DNA from: Parcubacteria group bacterium
GTDB taxonomy: Bacteria > Patescibacteriota > Minisyncoccia > Phycocordibacterales > CALRBT01
Direction of reading: 5' to 3'
Length of the DNA stretch: 64,000 nucleotides
NCBI GenBank assembly: GCA_943354475.1
Contig: CALRBT010000002.1
Location: forward strand, 16,361-80,360
This document shows positions 6,732-60,676 of the stretch, piece after piece. Each line of letters begins with the position of its first letter. Within the stretch, counting starts at the first letter, position 1. Both the position numbers and the translations under genes were made by a program. The notes under the pieces are model-generated. The model searched no databases. It was not told the DNA's origin and was given only the letters and a program-made list of their open reading frames with translations.

Positions 6732-6751
6732 TAACCAGAGGTATTAGATTA

Positions 6752-6792
6752 CACCAAAGCCTCAATAACTTTTAGTTATTGAGGCTTTGGTG
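6752..6792 (+). terminator. 19-bp perfect hairpin after ftsZ (CACCAAAGCCTCAATAACT-TTT-AGTTATTGAGGCTTTGGTG)
   Basis: read directly from the sequence; weak T-tract afterwards. Confidence 0.5.
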
Positions 6793-6810
6793 TTACAATT
6801 CCCTTTGTGT

Positions 6811-9463: not shown

Positions 9464-9832
9464 TTAAGACTTAAATACCGCCTCAAGGTTATGGCCGTTT
9501 GGGTCTATTATGAATGTCGCGTAATACCCTGGCTCATAGTCGCGCAGACCTGGAGCACCGTTATCAGTTGCGCCTTGCGCCAGGGCACTGGTATGGAAAG
9601 CTCGTACCGTATCCTCACTCTTGGCAGTAAAGGCAACGTGTGTGGATTTAGAGACAGGAGAGTCTTCAGTTGACTGCGCCACCTCAAACATGTCATGAGG
9701 GTTCGTTCCAAATCCAACAACAACACCAGGAATCTCAAACACGACTTGATAGCCGAGCGAACCAAGAACTGCCTCATAAAACGGTCGACTTTGGGCTAAG
9801 TCTTTTACCTTAATTTGTACGTGATCAAACAT
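9464..9832 (-). CDS. VOC/glyoxalase-bleomycin-resistance family protein
   Basis: MFDHVQIKVKDLAQSRPFYEAVLG...GHNLEAVF paired beta-alpha-beta-beta-beta modules. Confidence 0.8.
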   Translation of the reverse strand: MFDHVQIKVKDLAQSRPFYEAVLGSLGYQVVFEIPGVVVGFGTNPHDMFEVAQSTEDSPVSKSTHVAFTAKSEDTVRAFHTSALAQGATDNGAPGLRDYEPGYYATFIIDPNGHNLEAVFKS

Positions 9833-9984
9833 ATTTTAAATATAATAAGCACTTAGGTCACTCCGATACTAAAAAATTCTGGAGTGACAGGACTCGGTCA
9901 CAGATAATTTTCTGCGAAAATTTCCGCGACCCCGACTCGGCGACAAGTCCGAGCAAAGCTCGTCTTGTATACCGCCTCCGTCTT

Positions 9985-10071
9985 TCGAATCCCTCACCTT
10001 GCCTCACAAACACAAATCATTCAATTCTACTCATTGAATTCATTGTTTGTGGGCGGTGAGGGATTCGAATC
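9985..10071. repeat. ~87-bp imperfect palindrome whose arms are tRNA T-arm/acceptor-like (TCGAATCCCTCACC...GGTGAGGGATTCGAATC)
   Basis: right arm 10050-10071 (TGGGCGGTGAGGGATTCGAATC) is a near-copy of the tRNA-Val 3' end. Confidence 0.5.
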
Positions 10072-10180
10072 TTACAGATTCTGTACACCTTTTTGATTTG
10101 TTCAAAGCAAAGCTTCTCACAAATAACAAAAAGCTCTTCAAGTCCCCCACGAAAGCAAAATTGTTTGCTTTCTACCGCCC
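10050..10180 (-). other. 131-nt tRNA-like segment sharing the tRNA-Val acceptor stem (5' GGGCGGT...3' ACCGCCCA) but with a non-canonical interior; tRNA remnant, intron-containing tRNA or structured element
   Basis: ends pair as an acceptor stem identical to tRNA-Val; T-loop TTCGAAT; no canonical D or anticodon arm could be folded by eye. Confidence 0.3.
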
Positions 10181-10227
10181 ACAAAGTTAAAAACCTGATT
10201 TGCTCTGGTTTTTAACTTTGTGGGCGG
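10175..10227. repeat. 21-bp perfect hairpin (CCGCCCACAAAGTTAAAAACC-11 nt-GGTTTTTAACTTTGTGGGCGG) overlapping the 3' acceptor end of tRNA-Val
   Basis: read directly from the sequence. Confidence 0.7.
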
Positions 10228-10293
10228 TGAGGGACTTGAACCCCCGACATCGTCAACGTCAATGACGCGCTCTACCAACTGAGCTAACCGCCC
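10221..10293 (-). tRNA. tRNA-Val (anticodon GAC), CCA not encoded
   Basis: reverse complement folds as GGGCGGT-TA-GCTC/GAGC D-arm-CGTCA/TGACG anticodon stem with loop TTGACGT-GGGGG/CCCTC T-arm-ACCGCCC-A. Confidence 0.9.
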
Positions 10294-10365
10294 TTTATTT
10301 GCAACACTTATGCGAGTACTATATCAAGTTTTTTAGCTTGTTTCTAGTCAACTTTAGTGGTGTGG

Positions 10366-10481
10366 CTGTCAGATTTGAGCAAAGTTCTAGGCGCGAGCCT
10401 TGCGTGTGACCAAGATGTAGTAGGCCTACTTCGCGGGAGCACGCAAGGCGAAGCAACAACGAAATTTGCCAAATCTGACAG
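10366..10481. repeat. intergenic repeat family 1, copy A (12-bp terminal inverted repeats CTGTCAGATTTG / CAAATCTGACAG)
   Basis: conserved 5' GTTCTAGGCG and 3' CAACAACGAAATTTGCCAAAT blocks shared with copies at 17330, 19490, 31185 and 41218. Confidence 0.7.
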
Positions 10482-10486
10482 TTCCA

Positions 10487-11254
10487 CTATTTCGTCAAAT
10501 TCTCGTTATAGTTCAATATCTTCCACCCTCTTCCTGCGGTTATCCATTTCTTCCATGGAGTATACTCGCAGACTGTTACTCCCCCGTTATCCGCTGGGTT
10601 AAAGAAGCTAAGTCTCACGTAAGCAGAATTATGTAAATCTTTTCCGTTTAAAATATATGACAGCAACATCTTAAGGAAGACACCGTGTGTCACCACAACA
10701 ATTCTCCAACTAAAACTGCTTCCCAGAAAATCTAAGCATTTCCGGGCGCGTTTTTTTAAATCATTAAAATTCTCTTCATCAGAATAACGCATGTCATCGG
10801 CATGATAACTCAGATCGATTAAATCAATTATTTTCTTTACTTCAAGGTCGTAATAGGATTTGCCAACAATTTCACTTGGATTTCGCCTTTCGACCAAGAG
10901 TGGACTATATCTAACAGAAGTATTTAGGGACTTATTGATGATTTCCGCAGTTTCGGTGGTGCGCTCATAAGGACTAACGTACATTTTTTGAATATTGTAT
11001 TGCTTCAAATATTCTCCTATCCGCTCTGCTTGCTCTTTACCGGCTTCGGTGAGTCCACCTTTATTATTCTGTTTAATGTGTTCTTTATTGAGAATCGTTT
11101 GACCATGGCGAATAAAGTAAAAACGCTTGGTTCGTAATCTAAAAATAAAATAGAGGAGGAAAACTCCTGCGCCAATAACTACCAGCCAATAATCTAAGTA
11201 TGCCTTCTCCAGATAATAGAGATAAAACTGAAAAATAGTATTGAGTTCGCTCAT
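10487..11254 (-). CDS. histidine phosphatase (PGAM-like) family protein with N-terminal TM anchor
   Basis: FYFIRHGQT (RHG catalytic motif), LTEAGKEQA, N-terminal hydrophobic helix. Confidence 0.75.
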   Translation of the reverse strand: MSELNTIFQFYLYYLEKAYLDYWLVVIGAGVFLLYFIFRLRTKRFYFIRHGQTILNKEHIKQNNKGGLTEAGKEQAERIGEYLKQYNIQKMYVSPYERTTETAEIINKSLNTSVRYSPLLVERRNPSEIVGKSYYDLEVKKIIDLIDLSYHADDMRYSDEENFNDLKKRARKCLDFLGSSFSWRIVVVTHGVFLKMLLSYILNGKDLHNSAYVRLSFFNPADNGGVTVCEYTPWKKWITAGRGWKILNYNENLTK

Positions 11255-11290
11255 GACTTCTCATTCTAACAAATTTAACGAAAGGGTGTA

Positions 11291-11935
11291 CTAAACATCT
11301 GACCTGATATTTGGGTTATCGATAGTATATCCATAAAGACCCCCTTGTTTCGAGAGCCATAGTACATCGGCTTTAGTAAAGGCGACACCAACCACTAATC
11401 TTACCTTGGGCATTGCTTGGATTACCCTAGGCAGAGAGACAAGTGACCAGACTAATTTAAATGCAAAACGCTGTATTCGATCCCCCCAACCAAGCAAAAT
11501 CATGTCAGGCTTGTACATTTGTGAGTACTTTGCAATATGTTGTGGCAAAGGGGCGATAATGCCGAGTTTGTGTTCCCTTGGTTCATTCCAAGGAAACTTC
11601 GATGCAATGTGGGGAAAGGCAAAGAATGTTACCCGCTTTTCTAGACCAAATTGTTTAACAAAATCGACTGCTAATTTATAAAACCTCTCCTCGTACTCCT
11701 TACATTCAATCAGTAATTCAAGCTCTGTTTCTCGAAGGTAGTTCAGTGCTTCCTCGAAGGTCAGCACCTTGTTATCTTTGGCACGATTATGAATCACGAC
11801 AATCGTCTTACCATCAACTCCATATCTAATATCAAACTCCACGCCATCAATCCCAGCCTCTTTTGATTTCTTAAACGCTTCAATCGTGTTTTCGCCCGCG
11901 CCAGCACTCCATCCTCGATGTGCAAATGATTTCAT
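11291..11935 (-). CDS. glycerophosphodiester phosphodiesterase (GDPD) family protein
   Basis: HRGWSAGAGENTIEAF...GIDGVEFDIR (GDPD HR...EN...E.D signature). Confidence 0.8.
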   Translation of the reverse strand: MKSFAHRGWSAGAGENTIEAFKKSKEAGIDGVEFDIRYGVDGKTIVVIHNRAKDNKVLTFEEALNYLRETELELLIECKEYEERFYKLAVDFVKQFGLEKRVTFFAFPHIASKFPWNEPREHKLGIIAPLPQHIAKYSQMYKPDMILLGWGDRIQRFAFKLVWSLVSLPRVIQAMPKVRLVVGVAFTKADVLWLSKQGGLYGYTIDNPNIRSDV

Positions 11936-11947
11936 GAAGTATGAGGT

Positions 11948-12634
11948 TTATTCTGCCTGTACAGACGCACGAGTCATCGGACCAAAAAATCCAAGTGTTG
12001 GTGTGATTCCTTTGCTCTCCTGATATCGCTTAACTGCATTTCTTGTAAGAGGGCCAAAGTACCCTTTGGGAACTCCTTGGGGAATTATCAAAAGAGATTT
12101 GCGTTCTAAAAAAGTTTGCAAAGCAACAACGTCTTCCCCGGTACTGCCCAACGTTAAATTCCTCGCGTATGCATAGACACTGAGGATAGTTGTAGAACTT
12201 TTTTCTTTATCCAACGCAATAACAGTTTGATCGTTCTCCGTGTCGTGTACCAAACTAGTACTTCCACAATCAATTCCACTCTGCAACCTACCACTCAACC
12301 TACCACTTCCCTCTGGATAGATGGAGGCGAACACAATATAGGTAGCTCCTTTTTGATAGAAAATATTACCGTCTACTAGACCAGTCCATGACCTAATGCC
12401 ATAAATTTTCATACTACTCGACACATCTCCCTTCCAAGATTTAATTAGAGAAAACTGCGCGTACTCATCTTCCCTTACAGTTGATGTATGTACTTCATTA
12501 GCGGTACCTAAGAAGATGACATCTCCTCGATCCAACAGCCTCTCTGGAGGTTGGATGCACGAGAGGGCTGAAGCATTTTGTGAAAAACCAAACAAAGTTA
12601 CGGAAATAATAAAAAGGCTAAGTAAAAATTTCAT
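11948..12634 (-). CDS. secreted protein with C-terminal peptidoglycan-binding (PG_binding_1-like) domain
   Basis: signal peptide; C-terminal GEDVVALQTFLERKSLL...GYFGPLTRNAVKRYQESKGI motif. Confidence 0.7.
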   Translation of the reverse strand: MKFLLSLFIISVTLFGFSQNASALSCIQPPERLLDRGDVIFLGTANEVHTSTVREDEYAQFSLIKSWKGDVSSSMKIYGIRSWTGLVDGNIFYQKGATYIVFASIYPEGSGRLSGRLQSGIDCGSTSLVHDTENDQTVIALDKEKSSTTILSVYAYARNLTLGSTGEDVVALQTFLERKSLLIIPQGVPKGYFGPLTRNAVKRYQESKGITPTLGFFGPMTRASVQAE

Positions 12635-12705
12635 GTATTAACTGTAGCATCAAACCAATAACTCAGATAGTTCAATTCTCTATAAGAAAAATGGGATAAC
12701 TTTTT

Positions 12706-12775
12706 GTGACCCTACGCGGAGTTAAATTGAGCTTACAGCCTTGAAAAGGCTCTAAGTGATGGGAATTTCATGCGA
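12706..12775 (-). pseudogene. degenerate partial copy of tRNA-Glu (3' end 16/16 identical, anticodon-arm region about 85% identical, 5' half diverged)
   Basis: TGACCCTACGCGGAGT...CTTACAGCCTTGAAAAGGC aligns to the 13111-13182 tRNA-Glu. Confidence 0.55.
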
Positions 12776-12783
12776 ATAAATGC

Positions 12784-13068
12784 CTAGTAGAAACCTGAAA
12801 TGGTAATTCCAAAAATTGCTATGAGAACAATGCCGGTTGCCACACAAACCAAACCCAATTGTTTCGTCCCGCGCCCTCCCGTCCTCCTAGAGTTGAATAG
12901 TATCTCGTCCGCTAGAGTAGGGTTATTGCTCAATCGTTTTAATATTTTTTTATCTATCCAAATGAGCCAAATACCTAATACCAGGAGGATCAATCCGAAC
13001 ACACCAATAAGATTCAACATCATAGTTTCAGACATATAGATAAGGATATCATGACTTGCTGGCTCCAT
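12784..13068 (-). CDS. hypothetical small membrane protein (2 predicted TM helices), lying between the tRNA-Glu 3' end and its partial duplicate
   Basis: ORF with two long hydrophobic stretches. Confidence 0.4.
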   Translation of the reverse strand: MEPASHDILIYMSETMMLNLIGVFGLILLVLGIWLIWIDKKILKRLSNNPTLADEILFNSRRTGGRGTKQLGLVCVATGIVLIAIFGITISGFY

Positions 13069-13110
13069 AAATCACACAATCTCACACAGGCGAGATGTTT
13101 GTGTCTTTTG

Positions 13111-13182
13111 TGACCCTACGCGGAGTCGAACCGCGCTTACAGCCTTGAAAAGGCCGTGTCCTAACCGATAGACGATAGGGCC
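13111..13182 (-). tRNA. tRNA-Glu (anticodon UUC)
   Basis: reverse complement GGCCCTA-TC-GTCT..GGAC-A-CGGCC-TTTTCAA-GGCTG-TAAG-CGCGG-TTCGACT-CCGCG-TAGGGTC-A. Confidence 0.9.
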
Positions 13183-13329
13183 AAATATTCTTGATTCCAA
13201 AACACCATTTTGTGCCACTATTCGGAGCTGTGGCAAACCGCGCCGATATAGGGCCAAATATTCTTGATTCCAAAACACCATTTTGTGCCACTATTCGGAG
13301 CTGTGGCAAACCGCACCAATAGGGCCAAA
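13178..13329. repeat. direct tandem repeat, 2.1 copies of a 72-bp unit that begins with the first 5 nt of tRNA-Glu (GGGCC) plus the adjacent 5' flank
   Basis: 13178-13249 and 13250-13320 differ at 3 positions; a third partial copy GGGCCAAAT at 13321. Confidence 0.85.
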
Positions 13330-13451
13330 TGGCTATTTGAACTTCAAGAATATAACACTTTTATGCGTTTTGTGCAAAAAATGCTAGTATGGCAAAATTG
13401 GCTAAACCGATTGCAAGCAATCGGTCGCCCAACCTGCAATATCAGGTTTAG

Positions 13452-13541
13452 GGAGACGTGGGTGAGTGGTTGAAATCACCGCTTTCGAAAAGCGGCGTAC
13501 GGGAAACCGTACCGGAGGTTCAAATCCTCCCGTCTCCGCCA
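13452..13541 (+). tRNA. tRNA-Ser (anticodon CGA), class II long variable arm, CCA encoded
   Basis: GGAGACG-TG-GGT..ATC-A-CCGCT-TTCGAAA-AGCGG-variable arm CGTACGGGAAACCGTAC-GGAGG-TTCAAAT-CCTCC-CGTCTCC-G-CCA. Confidence 0.9.
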
Positions 13542-13558
13542 GAAATCGAAAAAGCAAT

Positions 13559-14728
13559 ATGAAAATTCTCTCAATCGAAACCAGCTGTGATGAAACTGCC
13601 ATCTGCCTCCTTGAGGCGAGTGGTGGTAAAGAAGCACCTGAGTTTAAAATTCTCGGCAACGGACTCATGTCACAAATCGAAATCCACAAACCGATGGGGG
13701 GAGTGGTGCCCATGCTTGCCAAAAGAGCCCATGGGGTTAATCTCGTGCCAATCCTCTTGGAAGTACTGCGTGAGGCAGAAGTTCTCGAAACAGCCGATCA
13801 AATCGAAAACAAACCGACTGAAGAAATTTCAAAAATCTTAGAAAGAGAGCCGGAACTCCTTGATGCGTTTATCAACAACCTCCTCACCATAGAACCACCT
13901 GACATTGATGCTATTGCGGTCACTTCAGGACCGGGGCTTGAACCAGCACTCTGGGTCGGCATCAACTTCGCAAAAGCACTTGGACTCCTCTGGAATAAGC
14001 CAGTCATCGCTATCAATCACATGGAGGGGCATGTCCTCTCAGCTCTAATGGAAGGAAAATTGTGGTTTCCAGCACTGGCCCTGCTTATCTCAGGTGGACA
14101 CACCGAGCTGGTGCATATAACAGACTGGCTTCAATATAAAGTCATTGGTGAGACGCGTGACGACGCAGTCGGTGAAGCGTTCGATAAGGTGGCGCGTATG
14201 ATGGGACTTCCCTACCCTGGTGGTCCTGAAATTTCCAAACTTGCTGAAATCGCTCGTACACAAGGCATCGTCTCAACGTATAAACTTCCACGTCCAATGA
14301 TCAATTCTGACGATTTTGCCTTCTCTTTCGCTGGACTTAAAACTGCAATGCTCTACACGATTAAAAAAATTCCCGAGCTGACTGATGAAATAAAGATGGG
14401 GCTGGCGCGTGAATTCGAAGATGCTGTCGTCGAGGTCTTGATTGCAAAAACAAAAAAAGCGCTAAAACAATTTGGCGCAAAAAGTTTGATTCTTGGTGGT
14501 GGTGTTACGGCAAACAAGGAAATTCGCCGAGCATTCGAAGAAATGTTCGAAGAAGAAATGCTGGACGAGCTTCCGACCACGTCACTAATGATTCCTGATC
14601 GCCTCCTCTCAACCGATAACGCGATTATGATTGGTATGGCCGCCTACATCAGATTACTTCTTAATCCATCTTTAAAAGAGGAGGGTTATGAGTCAATCAA
14701 GGCTGAAGGAAATCTCAGACTAGGCTAA
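13559..14728 (+). CDS. tsaD: tRNA N6-adenosine threonylcarbamoyltransferase TsaD (Kae1/Gcp/YgjD family); the track ORF 13466 start lies inside tRNA-Ser, so it is trimmed to the ATG at 13559
   Basis: MKILSIETSCDETAICLL, HMEGHVLSA metal-binding motif, GGGVTANKEIR. Confidence 0.85.
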   Translation: MKILSIETSCDETAICLLEASGGKEAPEFKILGNGLMSQIEIHKPMGGVVPMLAKRAHGVNLVPILLEVLREAEVLETADQIENKPTEEISKILEREPELLDAFINNLLTIEPPDIDAIAVTSGPGLEPALWVGINFAKALGLLWNKPVIAINHMEGHVLSALMEGKLWFPALALLISGGHTELVHITDWLQYKVIGETRDDAVGEAFDKVARMMGLPYPGGPEISKLAEIARTQGIVSTYKLPRPMINSDDFAFSFAGLKTAMLYTIKKIPELTDEIKMGLAREFEDAVVEVLIAKTKKALKQFGAKSLILGGGVTANKEIRRAFEEMFEEEMLDELPTTSLMIPDRLLSTDNAIMIGMAAYIRLLLNPSLKEEGYESIKAEGNLRLG

Positions 14729-14744
14729 AACTAGTAAGGGCGGA

Positions 14745-14995
14745 GAGCGCTGCTCCCCGCCACCCTTCAATCGGTCTGCGAATCGTCTTTTTCGTGAAAA
14801 TCTTCCCCAGGCCGAGCGTCCGAGGGCTCCTTGATTGGACCGTACGGGAAGCCTGCGGTCGACATCTTCACCTCAGGTCTCGAGCCTTCTCCAGACACGG
14901 AGGATTGCTTTGCGGGCATAAGGGGTGTATCCCGCCGAATATGACGGCTAAGTCTACTCATGGTCTTTGCTCCCAGAGTTAAACGCTGTCAGTTG
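14745..14995. ncRNA. GC-rich structured intergenic block (candidate ncRNA; identity unresolved, weak resemblance to the SRP RNA helix-8 GGAAGC context)
   Basis: about 55-60% GC in a roughly 40% GC genome, nested hairpins (GGACCG..CGGUC, CCUC-GUCU..AGAC-GAGG), no credible ORF, sits between tsaD and valS. Confidence 0.3.
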
Positions 14996-15125
14996 AAGAA
15001 TTTAGGCACTTGTATCCATCCACAATAAAACCATTCACTATATATAAAGTCAATCATTACCTGTGAAGAAGTCGTAAAACTAGACTCTTTCAATCGAACA
15101 AATCATCTGGTATTCTGAGGATTCT

Positions 15126-17330: not shown

Positions 17331-17451
17331 GACTTTGTATGACTGAGCGAAGTTCTAGGCGGAATCGAGGTTGCGACTGAGTCATACTAAACGTATGATG
17401 AAGGAGAAACTGAAGACTCCAACAACGAAATTCGCCAGTTATACAAAGTCC
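17330..17451. repeat. intergenic repeat family 1, copy B (inverted ends GGACTTTGTAT / ATACAAAGTCC)
   Basis: contains GAAGTTCTAGGCGGAATCGAGGTTGCGACT..CATACTAAACGTATG..GAAGGAGAAAC..CAACAACGAAATTCGCCA. Confidence 0.75.
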
Positions 17452-17454
17452 TAC

Positions 17455-18279
17455 ATGAGTTTTTTCTCACCTTTAAATATTTTAATTGCCTTTGCAATGG
17501 GGATACTCCCCGCACTTTTATGGCTATGGTTTTGGCTCCATGAAGACAGTCTGCATCCCGAACCAAAGAAAATCATCATTATCACCTTCATCGTTGGTAT
17601 GCTGGCAACAATTCCAGCACTCTTTGGTGAGAGTTATGTTTGTGGTTTATTTACAGAAACTAGCTCAGCAGGAAACTTTCTTACAAACATAGGGCTTGGC
17701 GCAGCCAATGATTTTAAAATTGATTGTATTGGAACATCCTTTGTAGGTAATCTTGCCCTTCTCGTTGTAATTCTATGGGTAGTCATCGAGGAAGTGGTTA
17801 AGTTTGGTGCTGTTTACGTTTCAGCACTCTGGAGAAAGGAGAACAATGAGCCGATAGATAGTTTGATTTATTTTATCACTGGAGCACTTGGATTTTCTGC
17901 TGCTGAAAACAGTCTTTATCTTCTCTCCGCACTAAGCACAGACGGTTCAGCTATTCAAAGTATCGTCTTGGGTAATTTCCGATTCCTCGGAGCAACACTT
18001 CTTCATACCGTTTCAACCGGTGCAATTGGACTCGCTTTGGCGCTCTCCTATTTTAAACCAAGGTGGCTTCGAAGTTCTGCGGTTATCATCGGAGTTATTA
18101 TCGCAATCGCATTGCATACGATGTTTAATTTATTTATACTTAGAAGTGATGATGGAAATTTCTTGGCGACGTTTGGTTTTGTTTGGCTCGCTTCAATTGT
18201 CCTATTACTCTTTTTTGAAAAAGTAAAAGTAGTTCACCAAAAATATTATTCCACTGAACCAATTACTCCAACTCTTTAA
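17455..18279 (+). CDS. PrsW-family intramembrane metalloprotease-like protein (start uncertain; the longest ORF from 17371 begins inside repeat copy B)
   Basis: multi-TM; VIEEVVKFG (EExxK), GFSAAEN, and His-containing TM motifs (LLHTVSTG, ALHTMFN) typical of PrsW/CAAX-like proteases. Confidence 0.65.
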   Translation: MSFFSPLNILIAFAMGILPALLWLWFWLHEDSLHPEPKKIIIITFIVGMLATIPALFGESYVCGLFTETSSAGNFLTNIGLGAANDFKIDCIGTSFVGNLALLVVILWVVIEEVVKFGAVYVSALWRKENNEPIDSLIYFITGALGFSAAENSLYLLSALSTDGSAIQSIVLGNFRFLGATLLHTVSTGAIGLALALSYFKPRWLRSSAVIIGVIIAIALHTMFNLFILRSDDGNFLATFGFVWLASIVLLLFFEKVKVVHQKYYSTEPITPTL

Positions 18280-18284
18280 AATTT

Positions 18285-18776
18285 ATGTCAAAAGATAAAC
18301 GCTCTTTTTTTGAAAAACTCTCCGGGGTAGTCCGAATTGAGGATGATTTTGAGCCACCACAGCAAGAAAGTAGGTCATTAACTCCTCGAGGAAACGGTCC
18401 ACAAGTAAGCAGGCAAAATCATGAGCTGAGCCCTGAAACAGTACAAGAGGCTGAATTAGCTGTTGATGTCTATCAACTACCAAATGAAATTGTTATTAAA
18501 GCCATGGCGGCAGGTGTCAGACCTGAAGATCTCGACCTTTCAATCACTAGAGACATAGTCACTATTCGTGGTCGTCGAGAAGAAACGAGGGGGGTTGATG
18601 AGAGTGATTACTTCCATAAAGAACTTTATTGGGGTTCATTTTCAAGAACAATTGAGCTTCCACAAGAGATTGATATCGAGAGCGCTACTGCTATTGAAAA
18701 ATTCGGTCTTCTTATTCTTACCCTACCAAAACTCAACAAAGAAAAGCAGGCGAAGGTCAAGGTCAAGTCTATGTAG
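18285..18776 (+). CDS. Hsp20/alpha-crystallin family small heat-shock protein
   Basis: alpha-crystallin domain AVDVYQLPNEIVIKAMAAGVRPEDLDLSI...GLLILTLPK. Confidence 0.85.
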   Translation: MSKDKRSFFEKLSGVVRIEDDFEPPQQESRSLTPRGNGPQVSRQNHELSPETVQEAELAVDVYQLPNEIVIKAMAAGVRPEDLDLSITRDIVTIRGRREETRGVDESDYFHKELYWGSFSRTIELPQEIDIESATAIEKFGLLILTLPKLNKEKQAKVKVKSM

Positions 18777-18851
18777 TTGGTTTAGGCGAAATTGACGATT
18801 ACTCAAAAAGTGTTATTCTCTTGATAGAGCTTGAAACATTAGGAGGTCAAT

Positions 18852-19280
18852 GTGGCCAACAGAGAGTGGAATGGCGACGAGAGAGCGGAGTTTAAGAAAC
18901 TTTGGGAGCAGAAGAATCCAGAACTCTCTGTGCGGGAAATAGCTCAGCGTCTTGGAAGAACAATGCCTGCAGTTCTGCATGAGCGCTTTAGGCTTAGGCT
19001 AACCCCACGAGCTTCGCCTATCAAACATAAGGGACTGGGAAAAGGAACAAAAATAGCTGGTGAGGCCACTGTACCTATTCAAACAACACCCCCAGAGAAA
19101 CCCAACAAGTCTAGTACTACCTGTTGCTGGCCGATTGGGGAGCCTGGGACAAAAAGCTTCTGCTTCTGTAGCTCTCCGTCCGAACTAGGACACCCATACT
19201 GCGCCTCACATTGTATCGATGCATACCCGAAAAGCTCCAGATTGGCAGAATGGCAAGCAAAACTTCGCCAAGCAACATAG
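18852..19280 (+). CDS. GcrA-like cell-cycle regulator family protein
   Basis: N-terminal W..DERAEFKKLWEQ..SVREIAQRLGRT (GcrA DNA-binding region) and C-terminal CCWPIGEPG..FCFC..PYCASHC, matching the GcrA C-terminal CxWPIGDP..FxFCG..PYC..H signature. Confidence 0.6.
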   Translation: MANREWNGDERAEFKKLWEQKNPELSVREIAQRLGRTMPAVLHERFRLRLTPRASPIKHKGLGKGTKIAGEATVPIQTTPPEKPNKSSTTCCWPIGEPGTKSFCFCSSPSELGHPYCASHCIDAYPKSSRLAEWQAKLRQAT

Positions 19281-19489
19281 ATACTAGGAGGGGGTCACCA
19301 CAAGGTGACCCCCCTAAATCGTTTTACGAGTTTATACACTACACTTCGTCAACGGTTTGAAATGACCCCTCTGAAACCAGTTCTATTTGTTTTTTCCCAA
19401 ATTTATGGTAGTTTTCTAGTATCGTTCCTGATTCTGGGGCTTCCATATTTGAATGAAATTCGACCCAGTACCGAGTAGGTCTTTTGACA

Positions 19490-19607
19490 AAAGAGGTCTT
19501 CCTGCTGAAAGAGGTGGAATCGAGGTTTCAACTGAGCCATACTAAAACGTATAGTGAAGGAGAAACCGATGATTCCAACAAAGAAGTTCGTCAAATATGG
19601 AAGTCCC
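19490..19607. repeat. intergenic repeat family 1, copy C; carries AAGGAG-N6-ATG and a 18-codon ORF (MIPTKKFVKYGSPHKKPR)
   Basis: GGAATCGAGGTTTCAACTGAGCCATACTAAAACGTATAGTGAAGGAGAAACCGATGATTCCAACAAAGAAGTTCGTCAAAT; ends 8 nt before tRNA-Phe. Confidence 0.7.
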
Positions 19608-19614
19608 CACAAAA

Positions 19615-19688
19615 AGCCGAGGTAGCTCAGTTGGTTAGAGCATCTGCCTGAAGAGCAGAGGGTCGGCAGTTCAACTCTGCCCCTCGGC
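19615..19688 (+). tRNA. tRNA-Phe (anticodon GAA)
   Basis: GCCGAGG-TA-GCTC..GAGC-A-TCTGC-CTGAAGA-GCAGA-GGGTC-GGCAG-TTCAACT-CTGCC-CCTCGGC-A. Confidence 0.9.
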
Positions 19689-19740
19689 ACAAACACAAAG
19701 AAAGCGCGCAACATTTGTTGCGCGCTTTCTTTGTGTTTGT
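19689..19740. terminator. 24-bp perfect hairpin (CAAACACAAAGAAAGCGCGCAACA-TTTG-TTGCGCGCTTTCTTTGTGTTTG) directly after tRNA-Phe; bidirectional terminator candidate
   Basis: read directly from the sequence. Confidence 0.6.
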
Positions 19741-19754
19741 GCCGATCCTTAAAA

Positions 19755-20051
19755 CTATTTCATGTCGGGAGATAGTAACTTTCTAATCCCTTCAAAACTT
19801 GGGGCATTCTGTGTCGTCGTAGAACTTGATCCAAAAAGCCCCTTTATTCCTTGATAATTTTTTACCACATCATCGAGATATGGTTGGATCACCAAGTAGC
19901 TCCAGAGCGTGATGCCGATAATGATTGCCCACTTAATCCATGAAAAAAAGTTTGACCAACGCTGTGTACGCTGCAAACTATGTAAAATTTTATTATTCTC
20001 TTCAGCAAGTTCGGTCAGATGTCTCATTTGACGAGTGATTTCTGGTTCCAT
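19755..20051 (-). CDS. hypothetical membrane protein (98 aa)
   Basis: one central TM helix, no recognisable motif. Confidence 0.4.
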   Translation of the reverse strand: MEPEITRQMRHLTELAEENNKILHSLQRTQRWSNFFSWIKWAIIIGITLWSYLVIQPYLDDVVKNYQGIKGLFGSSSTTTQNAPSFEGIRKLLSPDMK

Positions 20052-20106
20052 AAGTAACTCCAGTATACCAAAATTAAATAATCTGTTTTCCCCAGATTAT
20101 ATATTT

Positions 20107-21192
20107 TTAATTCTCATCTGAAATCCAAACATCATTTTGCCAATGCCAATCTGAATCCATTCCACCAAAAACAAAGATCTTATTCTTGAAAATTAACGCG
20201 GAGTGGTCCTCTCTACCGAGCCATGGTGGGTCAATCTTTGTCTTATTCCAGGTCAAAGCGTCGTCGGTGTACCAAATATCATTTGGTCCTCCTACCCCTT
20301 TGTCATTTAGTCTTCCAACTGTCCACAATTTGTCATGAAGTACCAGTAAGGCGTGACCTTGGCGCTCCAACCATGGTGGATTCTTGGTTACTAGCTCCCA
20401 ATGTAATCCATCGGTAGTCGACCAAACATCCTTGAATGTATTGTCGAGTAAATCCATCCCACCACTAAGATATATTTTTCCTTTAAATACAGCTGTTGCA
20501 TGATCCCACCTCGTACTCCACGGAATAGTCGTGGTTGCTTCCAGCCAATCAACACCATTCTCAGAGTACCAAACATCATTTTTCGTCTCTCGTTTGTCGT
20601 AATTAACCCCACCCATCATCCACATCTTTCCTTGAAAGACTTCAGTGGTTTGCCCCTCCCTCGGTGACCAAGGAGCCTTCGAAGCCACCTTTTTCCAGTT
20701 TATCGCATCATCTGACTGCCAAACATCACTCTGATAGCCACCGATAGGGCTCCAACCAGCAAACATCCATAACTTATTATTAAAGAGGACTACTGACATA
20801 GAACGCCTCAATGGCCAGGCTGCATGTGCTTTTTCTAATTTCCAATTAGCGCCGTCTGCCGTTGACCAAATATCATTAAAATGTGGCGCCTCCCAATACC
20901 GCACATTGTGCGCACCACTGTTGTTATTATTTCCATCGAGCCCTCCCATTGTCCAAATCTTATCTTGGAATACAAAACTAACCCCGGAGTCCCTCGTTTC
21001 CCACGGCGCTGAAGAAGTAGCCTTAGTCCACGATAAATTCTCTGGAGAAAAAGTGTCGACGATCTCTTGTTCTGCAGATGTTACAACAGACTCAACAGTT
21101 TGCTTTGACGACTTAACAAAAACTACCGCAAACACTAACAGAACAATAATTAATGCGCCGACAATTAATAGGATTTTTTGCTTTGAATTCAT
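20107..21192 (-). CDS. membrane-anchored Kelch-type beta-propeller repeat protein (6 blades)
   Basis: six repeats of W-x-K/E-x5-PW-x-R-x6-VF-x-(N/G)K-(I/L/M)W-x-(G/F)GG pattern; N-terminal TM/signal anchor. Confidence 0.7.
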   Translation of the reverse strand: MNSKQKILLIVGALIIVLLVFAVVFVKSSKQTVESVVTSAEQEIVDTFSPENLSWTKATSSAPWETRDSGVSFVFQDKIWTMGGLDGNNNNSGAHNVRYWEAPHFNDIWSTADGANWKLEKAHAAWPLRRSMSVVLFNNKLWMFAGWSPIGGYQSDVWQSDDAINWKKVASKAPWSPREGQTTEVFQGKMWMMGGVNYDKRETKNDVWYSENGVDWLEATTTIPWSTRWDHATAVFKGKIYLSGGMDLLDNTFKDVWSTTDGLHWELVTKNPPWLERQGHALLVLHDKLWTVGRLNDKGVGGPNDIWYTDDALTWNKTKIDPPWLGREDHSALIFKNKIFVFGGMDSDWHWQNDVWISDEN

Positions 21193-21248
21193 GCAGTAAT
21201 TAAAATAATCAGCACTCTTTAGTGCCTAGACCTTCATTGAAACGAAAA

Positions 21249-21542
21249 CTATTCCTTTTCCTCACCCCACTGCCAACGAGGTTTTTGACCCTTTAGATAA
21301 CAAACGAGGATAAATAATCCAGTAAGTACAAGAAAAGGCACTGCCATATCAATAAAAGTGTCGCTAATTGAATGAGAATTCTCATCAATCCTCATAAAGA
21401 GGTAGACGAGAGATAAAATGTAGATAAGTGTAGCTGCCCAACCTTGCCAAAGTGCAGGTACCCACCCCCAGCCATAGAGCTTCCGCTTGAACCAATATCC
21501 CTTAGGATTATTCTTTAGATAGGCGATATATTCGTTAATCAT
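21249..21542 (-). CDS. hypothetical small membrane protein
   Basis: 97-aa ORF with two hydrophobic helices. Confidence 0.4.
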   Translation of the reverse strand: MINEYIAYLKNNPKGYWFKRKLYGWGWVPALWQGWAATLIYILSLVYLFMRIDENSHSISDTFIDMAVPFLVLTGLFILVCYLKGQKPRWQWGEEKE

Positions 21543-21683
21543 ATTTTTAGTATACCAAAAAGCCTCTGATAAATCCCGGAGGCTAACAATAACCGCAGAT
21601 ACACTCTTGAATAGACCATTTCGGTAACAAATTGGAACTAATGACTACTTGTATAGATTAATTGGATAGTTTAATATGAAGTT

Positions 21684-22349
21684 ATGCGCAAACATGCTTT
21701 GGAAACTATTTTAGCCCTCAAGTCAGATCGAGAACAGGGGTTGTCTATTCCCCAACTAATGAATAAATATTCTCTACCCAAAACCACCATCTGGCACCAT
21801 GTAAAAGGGGTAGTCCTCACCAAACGCGCAAGAGCATTGGCACGATCAAACCAAGGTGGAAGTAAGTTGAGGAGTCAACAAAGTTGGGATCAAGCTGAGA
21901 CAAAAGCAATATTACTGCTAAAAAATTTTGATGAAAGCATAATTTGGCCAATTTTATTTTCTGCCCTTTATTGGAGTGAAGGAACAAAAAAGAGTGGTTT
22001 TGTATTCACAAACACAGATGAGTTTATGATTCGTGTTTTTCTAAAGATTTTACGTAAGCATCTACGAATTAAAAATGGTGATCTTGATATTCTAATACGA
22101 ACTTGCACCCCCATGAATCCATTAGAGTGTCGCCGACATTGGAGTGTGGTGACCGATATTCCCCATACAGATATTAAAATCAACCATAACAATGAACAAA
22201 ATAGAAGTAAAACAAGGTATGGTATTTGCAGAATTACGCTCAAAAAAGGTGGTTTTAATTTGAAATTAATGCATTGTCTTATTCAGGAAATTACTGCTAA
22301 GATACTGAAACGCCCTCGTAGTTCAACGGATAGAACTTCGCACTCCTAA
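21684..22349 (+). CDS. hypothetical protein with N-terminal HTH-like segment; weak LAGLIDADG-like stretch (LFSALYWSEGTKKSGF); last 38 nt overlap tRNA-Arg
   Basis: LSIPQLMNKYSLPKTTIWHHVKGV helix-turn-helix-like; ORF stop TAA lies in the tRNA-Arg anticodon loop. Confidence 0.45.
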   Translation: MRKHALETILALKSDREQGLSIPQLMNKYSLPKTTIWHHVKGVVLTKRARALARSNQGGSKLRSQQSWDQAETKAILLLKNFDESIIWPILFSALYWSEGTKKSGFVFTNTDEFMIRVFLKILRKHLRIKNGDLDILIRTCTPMNPLECRRHWSVVTDIPHTDIKINHNNEQNRSKTRYGICRITLKKGGFNLKLMHCLIQEITAKILKRPRSSTDRTSHS

Positions 22350-22386
22350 CGCGAGAATCCAAGTCCGACTCTTGGCGAGGGCACCA
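22312..22386 (+). tRNA. tRNA-Arg (anticodon CCU), CCA encoded; A31:C39 mismatch at the anticodon-stem base
   Basis: GCCCTCG-TA-GTTC..GAAC-T-TCGCA-CTCCTAA-CGCGA-GAAT-CCAAG-TCCGACT-CTTGG-CGAGGGC-A-CCA. Confidence 0.75.
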
Positions 22387-22419
22387 ACTAAGCAAAAAGT
22401 CTTACAAATGGGAGGTAAG

Positions 22420-22462
22420 GCCAAAAAATCAAAAAACGCCTATGTTGGCGTTTTTTGATTGG
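22420..22462. terminator. hairpin CCAAAAAATCAAAAAACGCC-TATGTT-GGCGTTTTTTGATTGG between tRNA-Arg and convergent grx gene
   Basis: stem flanked by A/T runs on both sides (bidirectional). Confidence 0.55.
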
Positions 22463-22477
22463 ATGAAGAGAAGAGAG

Positions 22478-22717
22478 TTAGGCTACAATCCAGAGAGCCT
22501 TGGCTAGAGCATCCCGATCAAACCCGACCATCATCTGTCCATCAATATCAATCACTGGTACCCCCATTTGGCCACTCTTCTGAATCATCTCATTTCGCTT
22601 CTCAAGGTTACTTGCAACATCAAATTCTTCAAATGGAACCTTGTGTTCATTCATAAAATCCTTTGCCATTTTGCAGTAACCACAGGTTGGTGTTGAGTAA
22701 ATTTCTACTTTTTTCAT
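22478..22717 (-). CDS. glutaredoxin-like protein (thioredoxin fold, CGYC active site)
   Basis: MKKVEIYSTPTCGYCKMAKDFM...VPVIDIDG (glutaredoxin/NrdH-like layout). Confidence 0.8.
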   Translation of the reverse strand: MKKVEIYSTPTCGYCKMAKDFMNEHKVPFEEFDVASNLEKRNEMIQKSGQMGVPVIDIDGQMMVGFDRDALAKALWIVA

Positions 22718-22800
22718 ATTTTTTCTGAATTAGCGCTTTTAAGTCAAGACATTGTACCATACTCGCTTTCATGAGCAAAAAAAGGGGTTTGATGAGATTG

Positions 22801-22823
22801 TGGTGCGAGTGGCGAGAATCGAA
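22801..22823 (-). repeat. 23-nt exact duplicate of the tRNA-Gly 3' end (TGGTGCGAGTGGCGAGAATCGAA), 112 bp downstream of the tRNA
   Basis: identical to 22935-22957. Confidence 0.7.
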
Positions 22824-22934
22824 ACTTACAGTTTCAGTACAGTTTTCGTATCACCTTGCGATATACTCAAACTTTTCGATTTTCGCTCACAGGCAAAGCA
22901 GTTTGCCTGCTCACTCGCACACTCACATTACTCC

Positions 22935-23008
22935 TGGTGCGAGTGGCGAGAATCGAACTCGCGTTACCTGCTTGGGAAGCAGGTGTATTACCACTATACG
23001 ACACTCGC
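22935..23008 (-). tRNA. tRNA-Gly (anticodon CCC), CCA encoded
   Basis: reverse complement GCGAGTG-TC-GTAT..ATAC-A-CCTGC-TTCCCAA-GCAGG-TAAC-GCGAG-TTCGATT-CTCGC-CACTCGC-A-CCA. Confidence 0.9.
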
Positions 23009-27339: not shown

Positions 27340-27390
27340 AAAAAAAGAAGCAAAACGGGCCAAAGGCCCGTTTTGCTTCTTTTTTATCTC
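27340..27390. terminator. bidirectional terminator hairpin GAAGCAAAACGGGCC-AAA-GGCCCGTTTTGCTTC with T-tracts on both strands
   Basis: read directly from the sequence, downstream of the 27394-29931 gene. Confidence 0.65.
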
Positions 27391-30077: not shown

Positions 30078-30082
30078 ATTAA

Positions 30083-30437
30083 GTGGTAATCAGATAGTCG
30101 CTGGTATAGCAATATACTAGAGGAAAGTCCGAACATTCCCCTTTCCTGCTTGCAGGGAAGGGAGCAAGGTAGCAGGTAATCCCTGTCTGGAGTAATCCAC
30201 GAGGTGCGAGCAGAGACGCTCGAAGTGAAAACCTAGAGCATCCCTCCCTGCAAGCAGGGAGGGATGAGTCCCCATCGCAAGATGGGGGTTGAAACGGCAA
30301 AACCCTTACCCGAATGCAAGGCCGTGCCAGCGTAAGCTGGAGTGCCGCTTGACTCTGCGAGTGATTGCAGGGCTAGATAAATGACTATCGTTACGATGTA
30401 AGTCGTGACACAGAATTCGGCTTATCGATTACCAACC
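30083..30437 (+). ncRNA. rnpB: RNase P RNA (bacterial type A)
   Basis: GAGGAAAGTCCGAAC (P4 5' strand) and ACAGAATTCGGCTTATCG (P4 3' strand, cf. E. coli ACAGAACCCGGCUUAUCG); P1 pairing GTGGTAATC / GATTACCA. Confidence 0.85.
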
Positions 30438-30475
30438 AATGGAAAAACCACCGCAAGGTGGTTTTTCCATTGGCA
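30434..30475 (+). terminator. rho-independent terminator of rnpB (CCAATGGAAAAACCACC-GCAA-GGTGGTTTTTCCATTGG)
   Basis: 17-bp stem with U-rich 3' arm. Confidence 0.65.
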
Positions 30476-60313: not shown

Positions 60314-60480
60314 GAAATTAATAATATTTGATTAAACGATAAAGTTAAATGTACAATTTTTTCGATTTCCTGTTCTTCTTGATTTTCGACCGACTCGTCG
60401 TACGTCGTACGAGAAGCTCATTTATTTATAATGTACAGTAGTATTATAACGTACCTAAGTTTCTACACAAAGCCACCTGT

Positions 60481-60629
60481 GGATAAGGGAGCGAAGCGAA
60501 CACTTATACTTTAGTGCAAGGGGACGTAAAAACTCGAAGGAGTTTTTACGGGACACTTATACCCCGTGGGTATAAGGGAGCTTATGCGAAGTATAAGCGA
60601 ACACTTATCCTCTTGAGGATAAGGAGTGT
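60481..60629. repeat. cluster of motif family 2 palindromes upstream of the pilin gene (GGATAAGGGAGCG-AA-GCGAACACTTATAC; CACTTATACCCC-GTGG-GTATAAGGGAGC; GCGAACACTTATCCTC-TTG-AGGATAAGGAG)
   Basis: read directly from the sequence. Confidence 0.6.
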
Positions 60630-60676
60630 GCCTCATGCCGTAAGTGAAGAGAGCGAAGTACTTCTTGTGCTCTACT

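Follow-up and report, generated by a model that had tools for sequence, protein, structure and literature searches.

The window analysed here is a 64,000-nucleotide stretch of the genome of a Parcubacteria group bacterium (assembly GCA_943354475.1, contig CALRBT010000002.1). ARAGORN and Rfam identify six tRNA genes in it, those for Val, Glu and Gly on the minus strand and those for Ser, Phe and Arg on the plus strand. In a BLAST comparison of the tRNAs with the whole window, each minus-strand tRNA gave one significant extra match: nucleotides 60–74 of tRNA-Val recur at 10063–10049 (15/15, E = 0.003), nucleotides 29–73 of tRNA-Glu at 12750–12706 (45 nt, 89%, E = 3e-9) and nucleotides 52–74 of tRNA-Gly at 22823–22801 (23/23, E = 5e-8). 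The Val match can be extended by eye to about 10069 with two T-loop mismatches, and the Glu match continues as degenerate similarity to about 12762. All three copies have the orientation of their tRNA and lie downstream of it; no direct copy of the plus-strand tRNAs was detected in the window at E < 0.05. The sequences are identical in two independent assemblies and in one near-identical genome record (L086–L088) and are therefore not an assembly artefact.

These matches bear out an earlier sequence-only reading of this DNA, which had reported a partial 3'-end duplicate near each minus-strand tRNA: a Val copy some 150 bp away, a Glu copy with a degenerate anticodon-arm part and an exact 23-nucleotide Gly copy. 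The hairpin that it described in the Gly interval is of a conserved type, its loop recurring in other genomes. To this we add a further degenerate Val copy behind a second cassette, and inverted (antisense) copies of the same part of the tRNA within both the Val and the Gly inserts (Table 1). Across the window and 80 related loci, 21 of 183 tRNAs have an exact copy of at least 13 nt of their own 3' part; with the exception of one adjacent T-arm repeat, these copies all lie 110–390 nt downstream on the same strand, and the layout is uniform across all of the duplicate-bearing loci.

Table 1. Features at the three minus-strand tRNA loci of the window.
Feature	Position	Strand	Evidence
tRNA-Val(GAC), intact	10220/1–10293	-	ARAGORN; Rfam 67.9 bits
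Hairpin directly 3' of tRNA-Val	10183–10219	-	
Antisense of Val acceptor 3' strand (GTGGGCGGT)	10174–10182	-	
P2, small branching hairpin splitting the Val antisense segment	10151–10172	-	
Antisense of Val T-stem 3' strand and T loop (GTGGGGGACTTGAA)	10137–10150	-	
Class A core, Val cassette 1	10060–10143	-	Model R2, 68.8 bits, E 3.9e-13
Direct copy of tRNA-Val 3' half (reported earlier)	10049–10069	-	
Hairpin after first Val copy	10008–10048	-	
Antisense segment, Val cassette 2 (GTGAGGCAAGGTGAGGGATTCGAA)	9984–10007	-	
Class B core, Val cassette 2	9891–9989	-	Model R1, 73.3 bits, E 3e-21
Second, degenerate copy of Val 3' half (GAGTCCTGTCACTCCAG)	9879–9895	-	
tRNA-Glu(UUC), intact	13110–13182	-	ARAGORN, Rfam
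Orphan 94-aa ORF between tRNA-Glu and pseudo-copy	12784–13068	-	
tRNA-Glu pseudo-copy, anticodon arm to 3' end	12706–12762	-	45 nt at 89% plus degenerate extension
tRNA-Gly(CCC), intact, CCA encoded	22935–23008	-	ARAGORN, Rfam
Antisense of Gly acceptor 3' strand (GTGCGAGTG)	22912–22920	-	
P2 hairpin (reported earlier as CAGGCAAAGCAGTTTGCCTG), loop AACUGCUU	22890–22909	-	
Degenerate antisense of Gly T arm (GAGCGAAAATCGAA)	22875–22888	-	
Class A core, Gly cassette	22814–22881	-	Model R2, 48.8 bits, E 2e-8
Direct 23/23 copy of tRNA-Gly 3' end, T loop to CCA	22801–22823	-	

At tRNA-Val and tRNA-Gly, the duplicates mark the outer boundaries of small cassettes, 110–160 nt long, which are non-coding and highly folded. 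Read along the tRNA, a cassette consists of the 3' half that completes the intact gene, followed by a hairpin; the antisense of that 3' half, made up of the acceptor strand, a small branching hairpin, and the T stem and T loop; a conserved core of 70–125 nt containing two hairpins, which occurs in two related classes, A and B, the latter always ending in GUGAC; and a second tRNA 3' half, beginning again at C56 of the T loop. The tRNA remains intact because the cassette brings a complete 3' half beside the gene body. At tRNA-Val two cassettes stand in tandem, class A and then class B, followed by the third, degenerate copy. The last 20 or so nucleotides of this tRNA are repeat copy A1, and the adjoining hairpin, the flanking tRNA end and its antisense together form a 25-nt inverted repeat (10174–10198 / 10204–10228) that is 96% complementary. 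The antisense segment of the second Val cassette matches the T loop of the copy immediately upstream, and its core ends in GTGACC at 9896–9901. Placement of all three tRNAs on the minus strand is probably a coincidence, since cassettes elsewhere occur on either strand of their loci.

Base pairing on the tRNA-sense strand joins the antisense segment to the downstream 3' half, the 3' strand of the closing helix in Val cassette 1 and in the Gly cassette, and the core is thereby enclosed in a helix mimicking the acceptor and T stems of the adjoining tRNA. Because it helps to close the predicted fold in this way, the downstream copy is, on this model, a target duplicate and a structural part at once. 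Compensatory changes are found at 13 of 18 pairs of the class B fold and at 12 of 15 pairs of the class A fold. Among 79 distinct metagenomic class B copies, 94.9% of cells are paired, compared with 74.7% for shuffles and 22–44% for slid controls, and the covariation score is 0.52 versus 0.16. G.U pairs outnumber A.C pairs in the stems by 127:14; together with the covariation, this asymmetry indicates a fold specific to the tRNA-sense strand. We note that copies that fold well are the ones a model-based search picks up most readily, so that structural integrity appears higher than it is. Folding of the window units gave the predicted structures, with z-scores of -6.0, -7.7 and -3.8. In first units the core lies 26–76 nt from the tRNA, and no separating terminator or promoter pattern was found in this interval.

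Two covariance models were built in this analysis, R1 for class B (the core of Val cassette 2 is one of the seed sequences of alignment A1) and R2 for class A (the core of Val cassette 1 is one of those of alignment A2). In 1.27 Mb of related loci they recover 41 copies of class B and about 15 of class A; the window adds three, all at tRNAs. Of 178 orthologous tRNA loci in 80 related Patescibacteria genomes, 33 (19%, or about one tRNA gene in five) are occupied, and the same tRNA may carry different core classes across orthologous loci. In an unbiased metagenome sample of 80 cores, 45 have a same-strand tRNA within 300 nt on the 5' side, six have one on the 3' side and three have an opposite-strand tRNA. 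Cassettes are carried by 24 isoacceptors in metagenomes, with a median tRNA–core gap of 63 nt; a 3'-half copy follows 33 of 50 metagenomic cores and antisense precedes 36 of 50. One copy lies behind a tmRNA gene. The module also interrupts extra, disrupted tRNA copies that adjoin an intact gene, sitting in their D-arm region, variable region or T loop. The 3' ends of these copies are truncated, and five of six lack two tRNA nucleotides instead of carrying them in duplicate; such junctions match no standard mechanism. Location in an ORF is limited to one of 80 copies, and one cassette lies in frame inside mnmA, the closest homologue of which has no insert. Another genome has, at this very point of mnmA, a palindromic insert of a different kind. 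Low-scoring and truncated copies exist. In all, the same architecture is seen at about 130 loci; as no matching family was found in Rfam 15 and literature searches returned nothing similar, the cassettes are apparently undescribed so far.

Arrays gain or lose whole units between repeated tRNA segments: one presence/absence difference was seen between related genomes, where one of the orthologous tRNA-Trp loci L159 and L091 has exactly one more unit than the other, 155 nt long and delimited by the repeated tRNA segment. In orthologous pairs, identity is 74–93% for the core, 78–85% for the tRNA and 42–60% for the upstream flank, values obtained from two informative species pairs. Core and tRNA are conserved to a similar degree, which would equally fit a non-mobile RNA beneficial to the host, and the post-tRNA hairpin shows compensatory changes between orthologous loci. 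Copies within one genome are just 78–93% alike and have only the core in common; there is therefore no sign of recent transposition.

In our view, the most consistent interpretation, to which we assign a probability of about 0.58, is that the cassettes form a family of mobile elements, of structured RNA or single-stranded DNA, that targets tRNA genes and resides in the T loop of Patescibacteria tRNA and tmRNA genes. It takes in the observed anatomy, fold, strand specificity, tRNA/tmRNA link, patchy occupancy and conservation in orthologous loci. Against it count the non-standard junctions and the divergence of copies within one genome; moreover, neither an enzyme nor a circular form or a transcript was observed, and no autonomous parent element was found, a scan of viral contigs giving spurious matches only. 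A purely selfish miniature DNA element, akin to MITEs or Rickettsia palindromic elements (RPEs) and with no RNA role, is the next candidate but a distinctly less likely one. Folded single-stranded DNA would here be moved by a transposase encoded elsewhere, the tRNA sites being merely survivable. Small size, hairpin-rich, non-coding, multi-copy character, patchy occupancy, truncated and low-scoring copies, the in-frame mnmA copy and the other palindromic insert at that spot all suit such an element, and a strand-specific fold is also expected under single-stranded-DNA transposition. RPEs likewise invade ORFs and RNA genes: R. felis has 728, of which 85 lie within ORFs and three in RNA genes (PMC1166351). 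With these and other miniature palindromic repeats the cassettes share their small, hairpin-forming, non-coding, multi-copy nature, their setting in small genomes of host-dependent bacteria, and their occurrence in frame inside protein genes and at RNA genes. However, they strongly prefer tRNA-like genes in a fixed, almost invariant orientation, carry tRNA-derived sense and antisense segments, show deep covariation rather than simple palindromy, and are rare in ORFs (1/80). Furthermore, the usual terminal inverted repeats and target-site duplication are absent, no transposase is encoded in the window, and in orthologous pairs with saturated flanks the core and the tRNA show similar conservation.

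Single-strand transposons of the IS200/IS605 type choose their target by base pairing of an internal guide with it. Their hairpin-ended non-autonomous derivatives have strand-specific hairpins near both ends, as the cassettes do, and the guide resembles the internal antisense segment of the cassette. The cassettes differ in having no fixed tetra- or pentanucleotide target, in their variable junction dinucleotides and in an antisense segment of about 20 nt rather than 4, and no TnpA or TnpB partner was seen for them.

It is rather unlikely that the cassettes are instead non-mobile, host-functional RNAs appended to tRNA transcripts that arise each time anew when the 3' part of a tRNA is duplicated locally. 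Such an RNA could be a tRNA-shaped noncoding RNA processed by RNase P and RNase Z, or a 3' element that influences the expression of the tRNA. Covariation and G.U asymmetry on the tRNA-sense strand, mimicry of the acceptor stem by the closing helix, the lack of a terminator between tRNA and core, in-situ conservation together with compensatory change in the hairpin behind the tRNA, and the intact structure of old within-genome copies are all consistent with this explanation. Nevertheless, the same core families occur behind 24 isoacceptors and a tmRNA gene, in disrupted tRNA copies and in an ORF, which points to movement of the core rather than to local, independent origins. Occupancy of only 19% of orthologous loci, differing core classes at the same tRNA, tandem arrays of mixed class (A then B at Val) and decayed copies also argue against it. 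Known tRNA-shaped or tRNA-linked noncoding RNAs include the tRNA-like domain of tmRNA and tRNA-linked small RNAs; the cassettes resemble them in their acceptor-stem-like closing helix around a foreign module, and in being co-oriented with the tRNA, with co-transcription probable. However, the acceptor mimic copies whichever tRNA adjoins, D and anticodon arms are lacking, the module replaces the T loop and there is no Rfam match. Introns in tRNA genes, group I in bacteria and bulge-helix-bulge at non-canonical positions in archaea, similarly interrupt D-arm, variable-loop or T-loop positions, but the cassette-interrupted copies are not functional genes (two nucleotides missing, 3' ends truncated) and have an intact tRNA alongside. 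Group I introns are excluded by the cassette size and the absence of Rfam matches.

The sequence-only reading had left the choice between decayed integration remnants and a small family of elements at tRNA 3' ends; conserved, covarying folds favour the latter at Val and Gly, and narrow sizes and the lack of an integrase speak against the former. As remnants of integrase-mediated integrative elements, the copies would be attL and attR left after internal deletion, which we consider improbable. The direct repeat does begin within the T loop, a feature of classical att sites of the T-loop class, the 26-nt attP core of mycobacteriophage Ms6 being the T loop and 3' end of tRNA-Ala (PMC1762012), and a tandem arrangement is also typical. 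As with such elements, the tRNA is left intact, the far side is bounded by a direct repeat of its 3' part, and new units adjoin the gene with older ones further off. In contrast, the cassettes are only 110–160 nt long and non-coding, occur at no fewer than 24 tRNAs and a tmRNA gene as well as in D-arm and variable regions of extra copies, and hold antisense of the target and a conserved structured core, neither of which an integrase scar predicts. The searches suggested earlier yielded no integrase gene in the window, where transposase and reverse transcriptase genes were likewise not found, and no larger, integrase-carrying version among 160 loci. The Val and Gly inserts are conserved family members rather than random leftovers, and their narrow size, conserved core and structural role argue against decayed scars. 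That the copies might instead be functional, as the earlier reading had allowed, agrees in part with our results: the orthologous cassette is about as conserved as the tRNA, and the downstream copy helps to close the fold.

The duplicate at tRNA-Glu arose separately: here a 388-nt insert unique to the lineage lies between repeats that extend from the anticodon arm to the 3' end, and of the three loci it is this one that classical integration would fit best. No cassette is present. The orphan ORF in the insert has no Pfam match, and no homologue was found in the 80 related loci or among 5.8 billion proteins.

Chance similarity or assembly artefact, to which only the short Val match (15 nt exact) lends any support, has a negligible probability, being already refuted by recurrence of the architecture at about 130 loci, by the E values for Glu and Gly, and by the identical sequence in the near-identical record and two independent assemblies.

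We thus return to a mobile, tRNA-targeting cassette family. It would have spread by insertion at exposed parts of tRNA-like genes, with the mobilising machinery presumably supplied in trans because the cassette encodes nothing. Our preferred route is recombination via the tRNA-identical segment, which might resemble a miniature attP/attB system or homology-guided insertion, and the folded core may be the part that is recognised or tolerated. Once in place, the cassette would be co-transcribed with its tRNA as a tRNA-shaped RNA.

The window is a chromosomal segment with housekeeping genes from the Patescibacteria (CPR, Paceibacteria-like), and a contig in NCBI assembly GCA_943354935.1 matches it at 99.99% identity. 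Six tRNAs were located in it using ARAGORN and Rfam, and each was compared by BLAST with the whole window. Each minus-strand tRNA gave one significant extra match, in all three cases downstream and in direct orientation, and no such copy was found in the window for the three plus-strand tRNAs. The duplicated 3' ends reported for tRNA-Val, tRNA-Glu and tRNA-Gly by the sequence-only reading are therefore borne out by BLAST. As at attachment sites, an insert is flanked by a direct repeat of a tRNA 3' segment and the tRNA is regenerated; in class B, one of two core types described below, the downstream copy begins at T-loop C56, and the Glu repeat starts in the anticodon arm, both of which are canonical att sublocations. 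Just before their copies the Val and Gly loci share a sequence on the tRNA strand (GTACnGAAnCTGTAAG...), and both inserts contain the reverse complement of their own tRNA 3' part. In the window and 80 related loci, retrieved with the adjacent aminoacyl-tRNA synthetase at their centre (78% amino-acid identity at best), the own 3' part was copied exactly (at least 13 nt, within 2 kb) for 21 of 183 tRNAs. With the exception of one adjacent T-arm repeat, all of these copies share the strand of their tRNA and follow it at a distance of 110-390 nt.

Positions of the features discussed, in the window and in records from other genomes (L-numbers)
Feature	Position	Extent, score or identity	Basis
Copy of tRNA-Val 3' end	window 10049-10063, by eye to about 10069	15/15 nt	BLAST
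Copy of tRNA-Glu	window 12706-12750	45 nt, 89%	BLAST
Copy of tRNA-Gly 3' end	window 22801-22823	23/23 nt	BLAST
Class A core, Val	window 10060-10143	68.8 bits	model R2
Class A core, Gly	window 22814-22881	48.8 bits	model R2
Class B core, Val	window 9891-9989	73.3 bits	model R1
Degenerate third copy of Val 3' half	window 9879-9895		
Tandem repeat, 73-nt unit	window 13175-13330	2.2 copies, 96% matches	
Perfect hairpin at tRNA-Phe	window 19684-19745	30/30 nt	
Similar hairpins at gene ends	window 27341-27385, 6751-6793		
RNase P RNA, bacterial class A	window 30082-30440 (+)	106.8 bits (gathering score 100 bits)	Rfam
Type IV pilus / type II secretion genes	window 59912-62954 and 34454-35119		
Disrupted tRNA copy, module in T loop	L020 Glu; L002 Gly-CCC		
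Disrupted tRNA copy, module in variable region	L048, L070 Phe		
Disrupted tRNA copy, module in D-arm region	L124 Ser; L132 Asn		
Class B module in mnmA	L143 2480-2900 (-)		
Palindromic insert in mnmA	L211 660-830	15-bp perfect terminal inverted repeat, -49 kcal/mol	
Class B cassette behind tmRNA gene	L133 489-1054 (-)	tmRNA 124.6 bits	Rfam
Three class B cores	L021 3226-5567 (+)	2.3 kb	
Recurring aaatttGGAAGTACTCTnnGGTG motif	L002 ~9600-9700 (-); L022 16420-16470; L002 ~5650 (-)		

The Val and Gly inserts belong to a family of conserved non-coding cassettes which have a strand-specific fold and are linked to the 3' portion of tRNA-like genes. One layout is found throughout: the tRNA is followed by a hairpin, an antisense acceptor strand, the P2 hairpin, the T stem and T loop in antisense, a core and a tRNA 3' half. 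This downstream tRNA copy is at once the displaced target segment and the strand that completes the closing helix on its 3' side. The cassettes are co-oriented with the tRNA, and no terminator or promoter pattern was found between tRNA and core. Two core types, class A and class B, were searched for with covariance models (R2 and R1, respectively) in place of core motif regular expressions, which were dropped as mis-registered or far too loose; beyond the three tabulated cores, neither model gave a credible match in the 64 kb window. At tRNA-Val the class A and class B cassettes stand in tandem in that order, each with its own hairpin and antisense segment, and the degenerate third copy of the Val 3' half follows the second. 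When folded as RNA, all three units adopt the structure predicted for them, in which an acceptor-like helix on the outside is followed by the branching P2, a helix derived from the T stem and then the core; the energies are -51, -59 and -54 kcal/mol (z-scores -6.0, -7.7 and -3.8). The hairpin that had been remarked upon in the Gly interval is P2, and its loop, AACUGCUU, is seen again in other genomes.

The class B consensus reads ...CGAAAGAC-GGAGC-(hairpin)-CGA-GUC-GG-GGUCGCG-(hairpin)-CGUGAC. Individual class B sequences fold concordantly, and 13 of the 18 pairs are retained via double changes in a 16-sequence alignment. Among 79 distinct metagenomic copies 94.9% of cells are paired, compared with 74.7% in shuffles and 22-44% in slid controls, and the covariation score is 0.52 versus 0.16. 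Class A has an 8-bp stem around GAGC and a hairpin, a GUACUG linker and a 7-bp hairpin running into the T loop, with compensatory changes at 12 of 15 pairs. We regard the two classes as related because they agree in topology and both have GGUC/GACC at the foot of the last hairpin. In the stems G.U outnumbers A.C by 127 to 14, and the fold has therefore been selected on the tRNA-sense strand only, be it in RNA or in one of the DNA strands. Covariation above controls and a strand-specific fold, the marks of a structured RNA, are both present. Using Rfam 15, only the tRNAs and RNase P reached their gathering scores in the window, and nothing credible covered the Val or Gly locus at E<=10; the cassettes are described nowhere in the literature and libraries searched. 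A hammerhead-like reading of the class B 'GAAA-GAC...GUC' was discarded, as the A15.1-U16.1 pair is impossible (checked by hand) and the Rfam ribozyme models gave no match.

Two further properties of the cassettes are of limited use. The antisense segment resembles the upstream tRNA copy better than the downstream one by 22 to 2, a preference that is uninformative, as it is mostly due to the absence of T54-T55 from the downstream copy. A hairpin that pairs back onto the tRNA end is found at 36% of occupied loci versus 5% otherwise, and was rejected as a diagnostic because long perfect hairpins are the ordinary gene-end style of this genome. The strongest inverted repeat of the window (TCGGCAC...GTGCCGA) overlaps the 3' end of tRNA-Phe by 7 nt; it is like the first part of a cassette, lacks a core and, with similar long perfect hairpins at other gene ends (two are tabulated as examples), may represent a local terminator style. 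An optional conserved 14-nt segment, AAGCGTACTCGCGG, separates the T-loop CGAT from the 3' strand of the T stem in some downstream copies (L159, L091, L020 and L114), and is found in T-loop remnants across different genomes and different tRNAs. The motif aaattt...aaatttGGAAGTACTCTnnGGTG recurs in a pseudo-tRNA-Gly anticodon stem and within class A cores, and may be a third small element type.

Among relatives, cassettes occupy 33 of 178 scorable tRNA loci (Phe, 7/53; Arg-CCT, 9/42; Val-GAC, 6/22; Glu-UUC, 5/19; Gly-CCC, 1/17; Ser-CGA, 3/14; Glu-CUC, 2/8). The same tRNA bears different core classes in different genomes, and the cassettes are not significantly clustered by genome (permutation p of about 0.15). 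A metagenome scan with a class B signature, which is unbiased regarding tRNAs, returned 80 good copies: 45 follow a tRNA of the same strand at no more than 300 nt, six have one on the 3' side, three have an opposite-strand tRNA and 26 no tRNA, several of these last being at contig ends or beside decayed tRNAs. These copies involve 24 isoacceptors, with a median gap of 63 nt. In L133 a class B cassette stands behind a tmRNA gene and contains sequence antisense to its tRNA-like 3' end. For Val and Gly, the suggestion of a small element family associated with tRNA 3' ends is upheld by this spread of conserved, folded cassettes. We also note three class B cores in one record (L021), one of them 5'-truncated and the first flanked by tRNA-Glu-like antisense and sense segments; neither ARAGORN nor Rfam placed a tRNA near them.

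The module of P2 and core also occurs within extra, disrupted tRNA copies adjoining an intact gene, at the positions listed in the table. Exactly two tRNA nucleotides are absent at the junction in five of six such copies. The class B core ends in GTGAC (GGAAC in L048), after which, in the standard arrangement, the downstream copy continues from C56. These copies are not intron-bearing tRNAs, given the two absent nucleotides, the want of proper 3' parts and the adjacent intact gene. IS91 targets GTTC, and serine recombinases and IS110-style elements keep a 2-nt crossover on both sides; a fixed target and a shared crossover were both rejected because the junction dinucleotides vary and are lost, not shared. 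In L143 a class B module resides in frame and free of stop codons inside mnmA, as RPE elements reside in protein genes; the closest MnmA homologue (L210, about 72-81% identity) has an empty site, and in L211 the position is taken by a palindromic insert of another, unrelated kind. Only one of the 80 copies is in an ORF. In Paceibacteria in-frame inserts of about 25-45 residues are concentrated in this MnmA loop, which is bounded by ATGHY and KDQSYFL, and several other homologues have further, different inserts there.

The window cassettes are unchanged across three near-identical assemblies, and no strain-level polymorphism was found. The sole variation among the three is in the copy number of the 73-nt repeat directly upstream of tRNA-Glu (one unit fewer in L087), the unit of which comprises the first 8 nt of tRNA-Glu (GGCCCTAT) and upstream sequence. 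The orthologous tRNA-Trp loci of L159 and L091, with collinear flanks, are distinguished by a single complete class A unit of 155 nt with the repeated tRNA segment at its borders, and the joint sequence suggests that L159 lost the unit by recombination between two T-loop remnants. This pair and L147/L096 are the two informative orthologous pairs for conservation. For L159/L091 the identities are 0.85 for the tRNA, 0.73 for the hairpin and antisense segment (with compensatory changes), 0.93 for the core and 0.60 for the upstream flank; for L147/L096 they are 0.78, 0.72, 0.74 and 0.42, respectively. Copies at different sites in one genome have only a core of roughly 70 nt in common, at 78-93% identity, and nothing therefore points to a recent burst; either the cassettes persist where they are or genomes exchange them.

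In our view the cassette family probably is or was mobile, because it is found at many unrelated tRNAs, a tmRNA, disrupted copies and an ORF, in mixed-class tandem arrays and with unit-level presence and absence. It would be harmless, because the gene-proximal part provides an intact 3' half and hairpin, and its machinery would be supplied in trans. The favoured route would be recombination via the tRNA-identical segment, either as a miniature attP/attB pair or as homology-guided insertion. Mechanism is the weakest part of this reading, which does not account for the two missing nucleotides or for the sense and antisense matching to each new tRNA. Pilus and secretion genes in the window (T2SSE, T2SSF and N-methyl pseudopilins) are relevant only if the cassettes spread via DNA uptake.

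There are two main rivals. A purely selfish single-stranded-DNA element would suit a fold selected on one DNA strand, and the cassettes are short, non-coding, multi-copy and hairpin-forming in the manner of MITEs. Target-site duplication and terminal inverted repeats were not found (2 nt of the target are gone and the ends are tRNA-derived), nor was a fixed 4-5 nt target of the IS200/IS605 type (the junction contexts are GT, CT, GA, TT and AG), and neither TnpA nor TnpB was seen in the 64 kb window. A non-mobile host RNA would suit the covariation and the strand-specific fold, and would have to accommodate the disrupted copies and the copy in an ORF. We consider it unlikely that the cassette encodes a new kind of RNA in the shape of a tRNA, with a core replacing the T loop inside a helix that imitates the acceptor stem of the tRNA next to it, which is cut from the tRNA transcript by processing enzymes, acts as RNA and spreads by RNA guidance rather than by a recombinase. 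Such an RNA might be self-inserting or self-cleaving and target exposed tRNA loops; a possible tandem G.A motif in the core was recognised only by eye. Alternatively, the cassette might serve as a spare 3' half, from exactly C56, for tRNAs damaged in the T loop. Classical insertion with a flanking repeat would fit tRNA-Glu, where the 388-nt insert holds ORF94 (94 aa, without a homologue among 5.8 billion proteins or in relatives), the pseudo-copy extends from anticodon arm to 3' end, and core and antisense segment are both absent; it does not fit the structured cassettes at Val and Gly, which have no integrase. Decayed integrase-borne elements, the other option raised for Val and Gly by the sequence-only reading, are not supported: these inserts are non-coding, none of about 60 window ORFs is an integrase, transposase or reverse transcriptase, and no larger version with genes was found in 160 loci. 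No phage-borne copy was found in a scan of viral contigs with the class B signature; five GC-rich viral contigs considered as a parent element scored only about 12 bits by the model and are spurious.

Annotation pipelines leave these cassettes blank, and the partial tRNA copies could pass for prophage or island boundaries. The genomes of Patescibacteria rank among the smallest and most streamlined in bacteria, with few recognised mobile elements. Despite this streamlining, 110-160 nt of conserved and highly structured non-coding sequence are found at about a fifth of the tRNA loci. If mobile, the cassettes would exemplify the harmless colonisation of essential single-copy tRNA genes, bringing a replacement 3' half and their own hairpin, and would offer a tractable marker of gene flow among uncultivated lineages. 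If expressed, they would constitute an abundant new class of RNA shaped as the acceptor arm of the adjacent tRNA.
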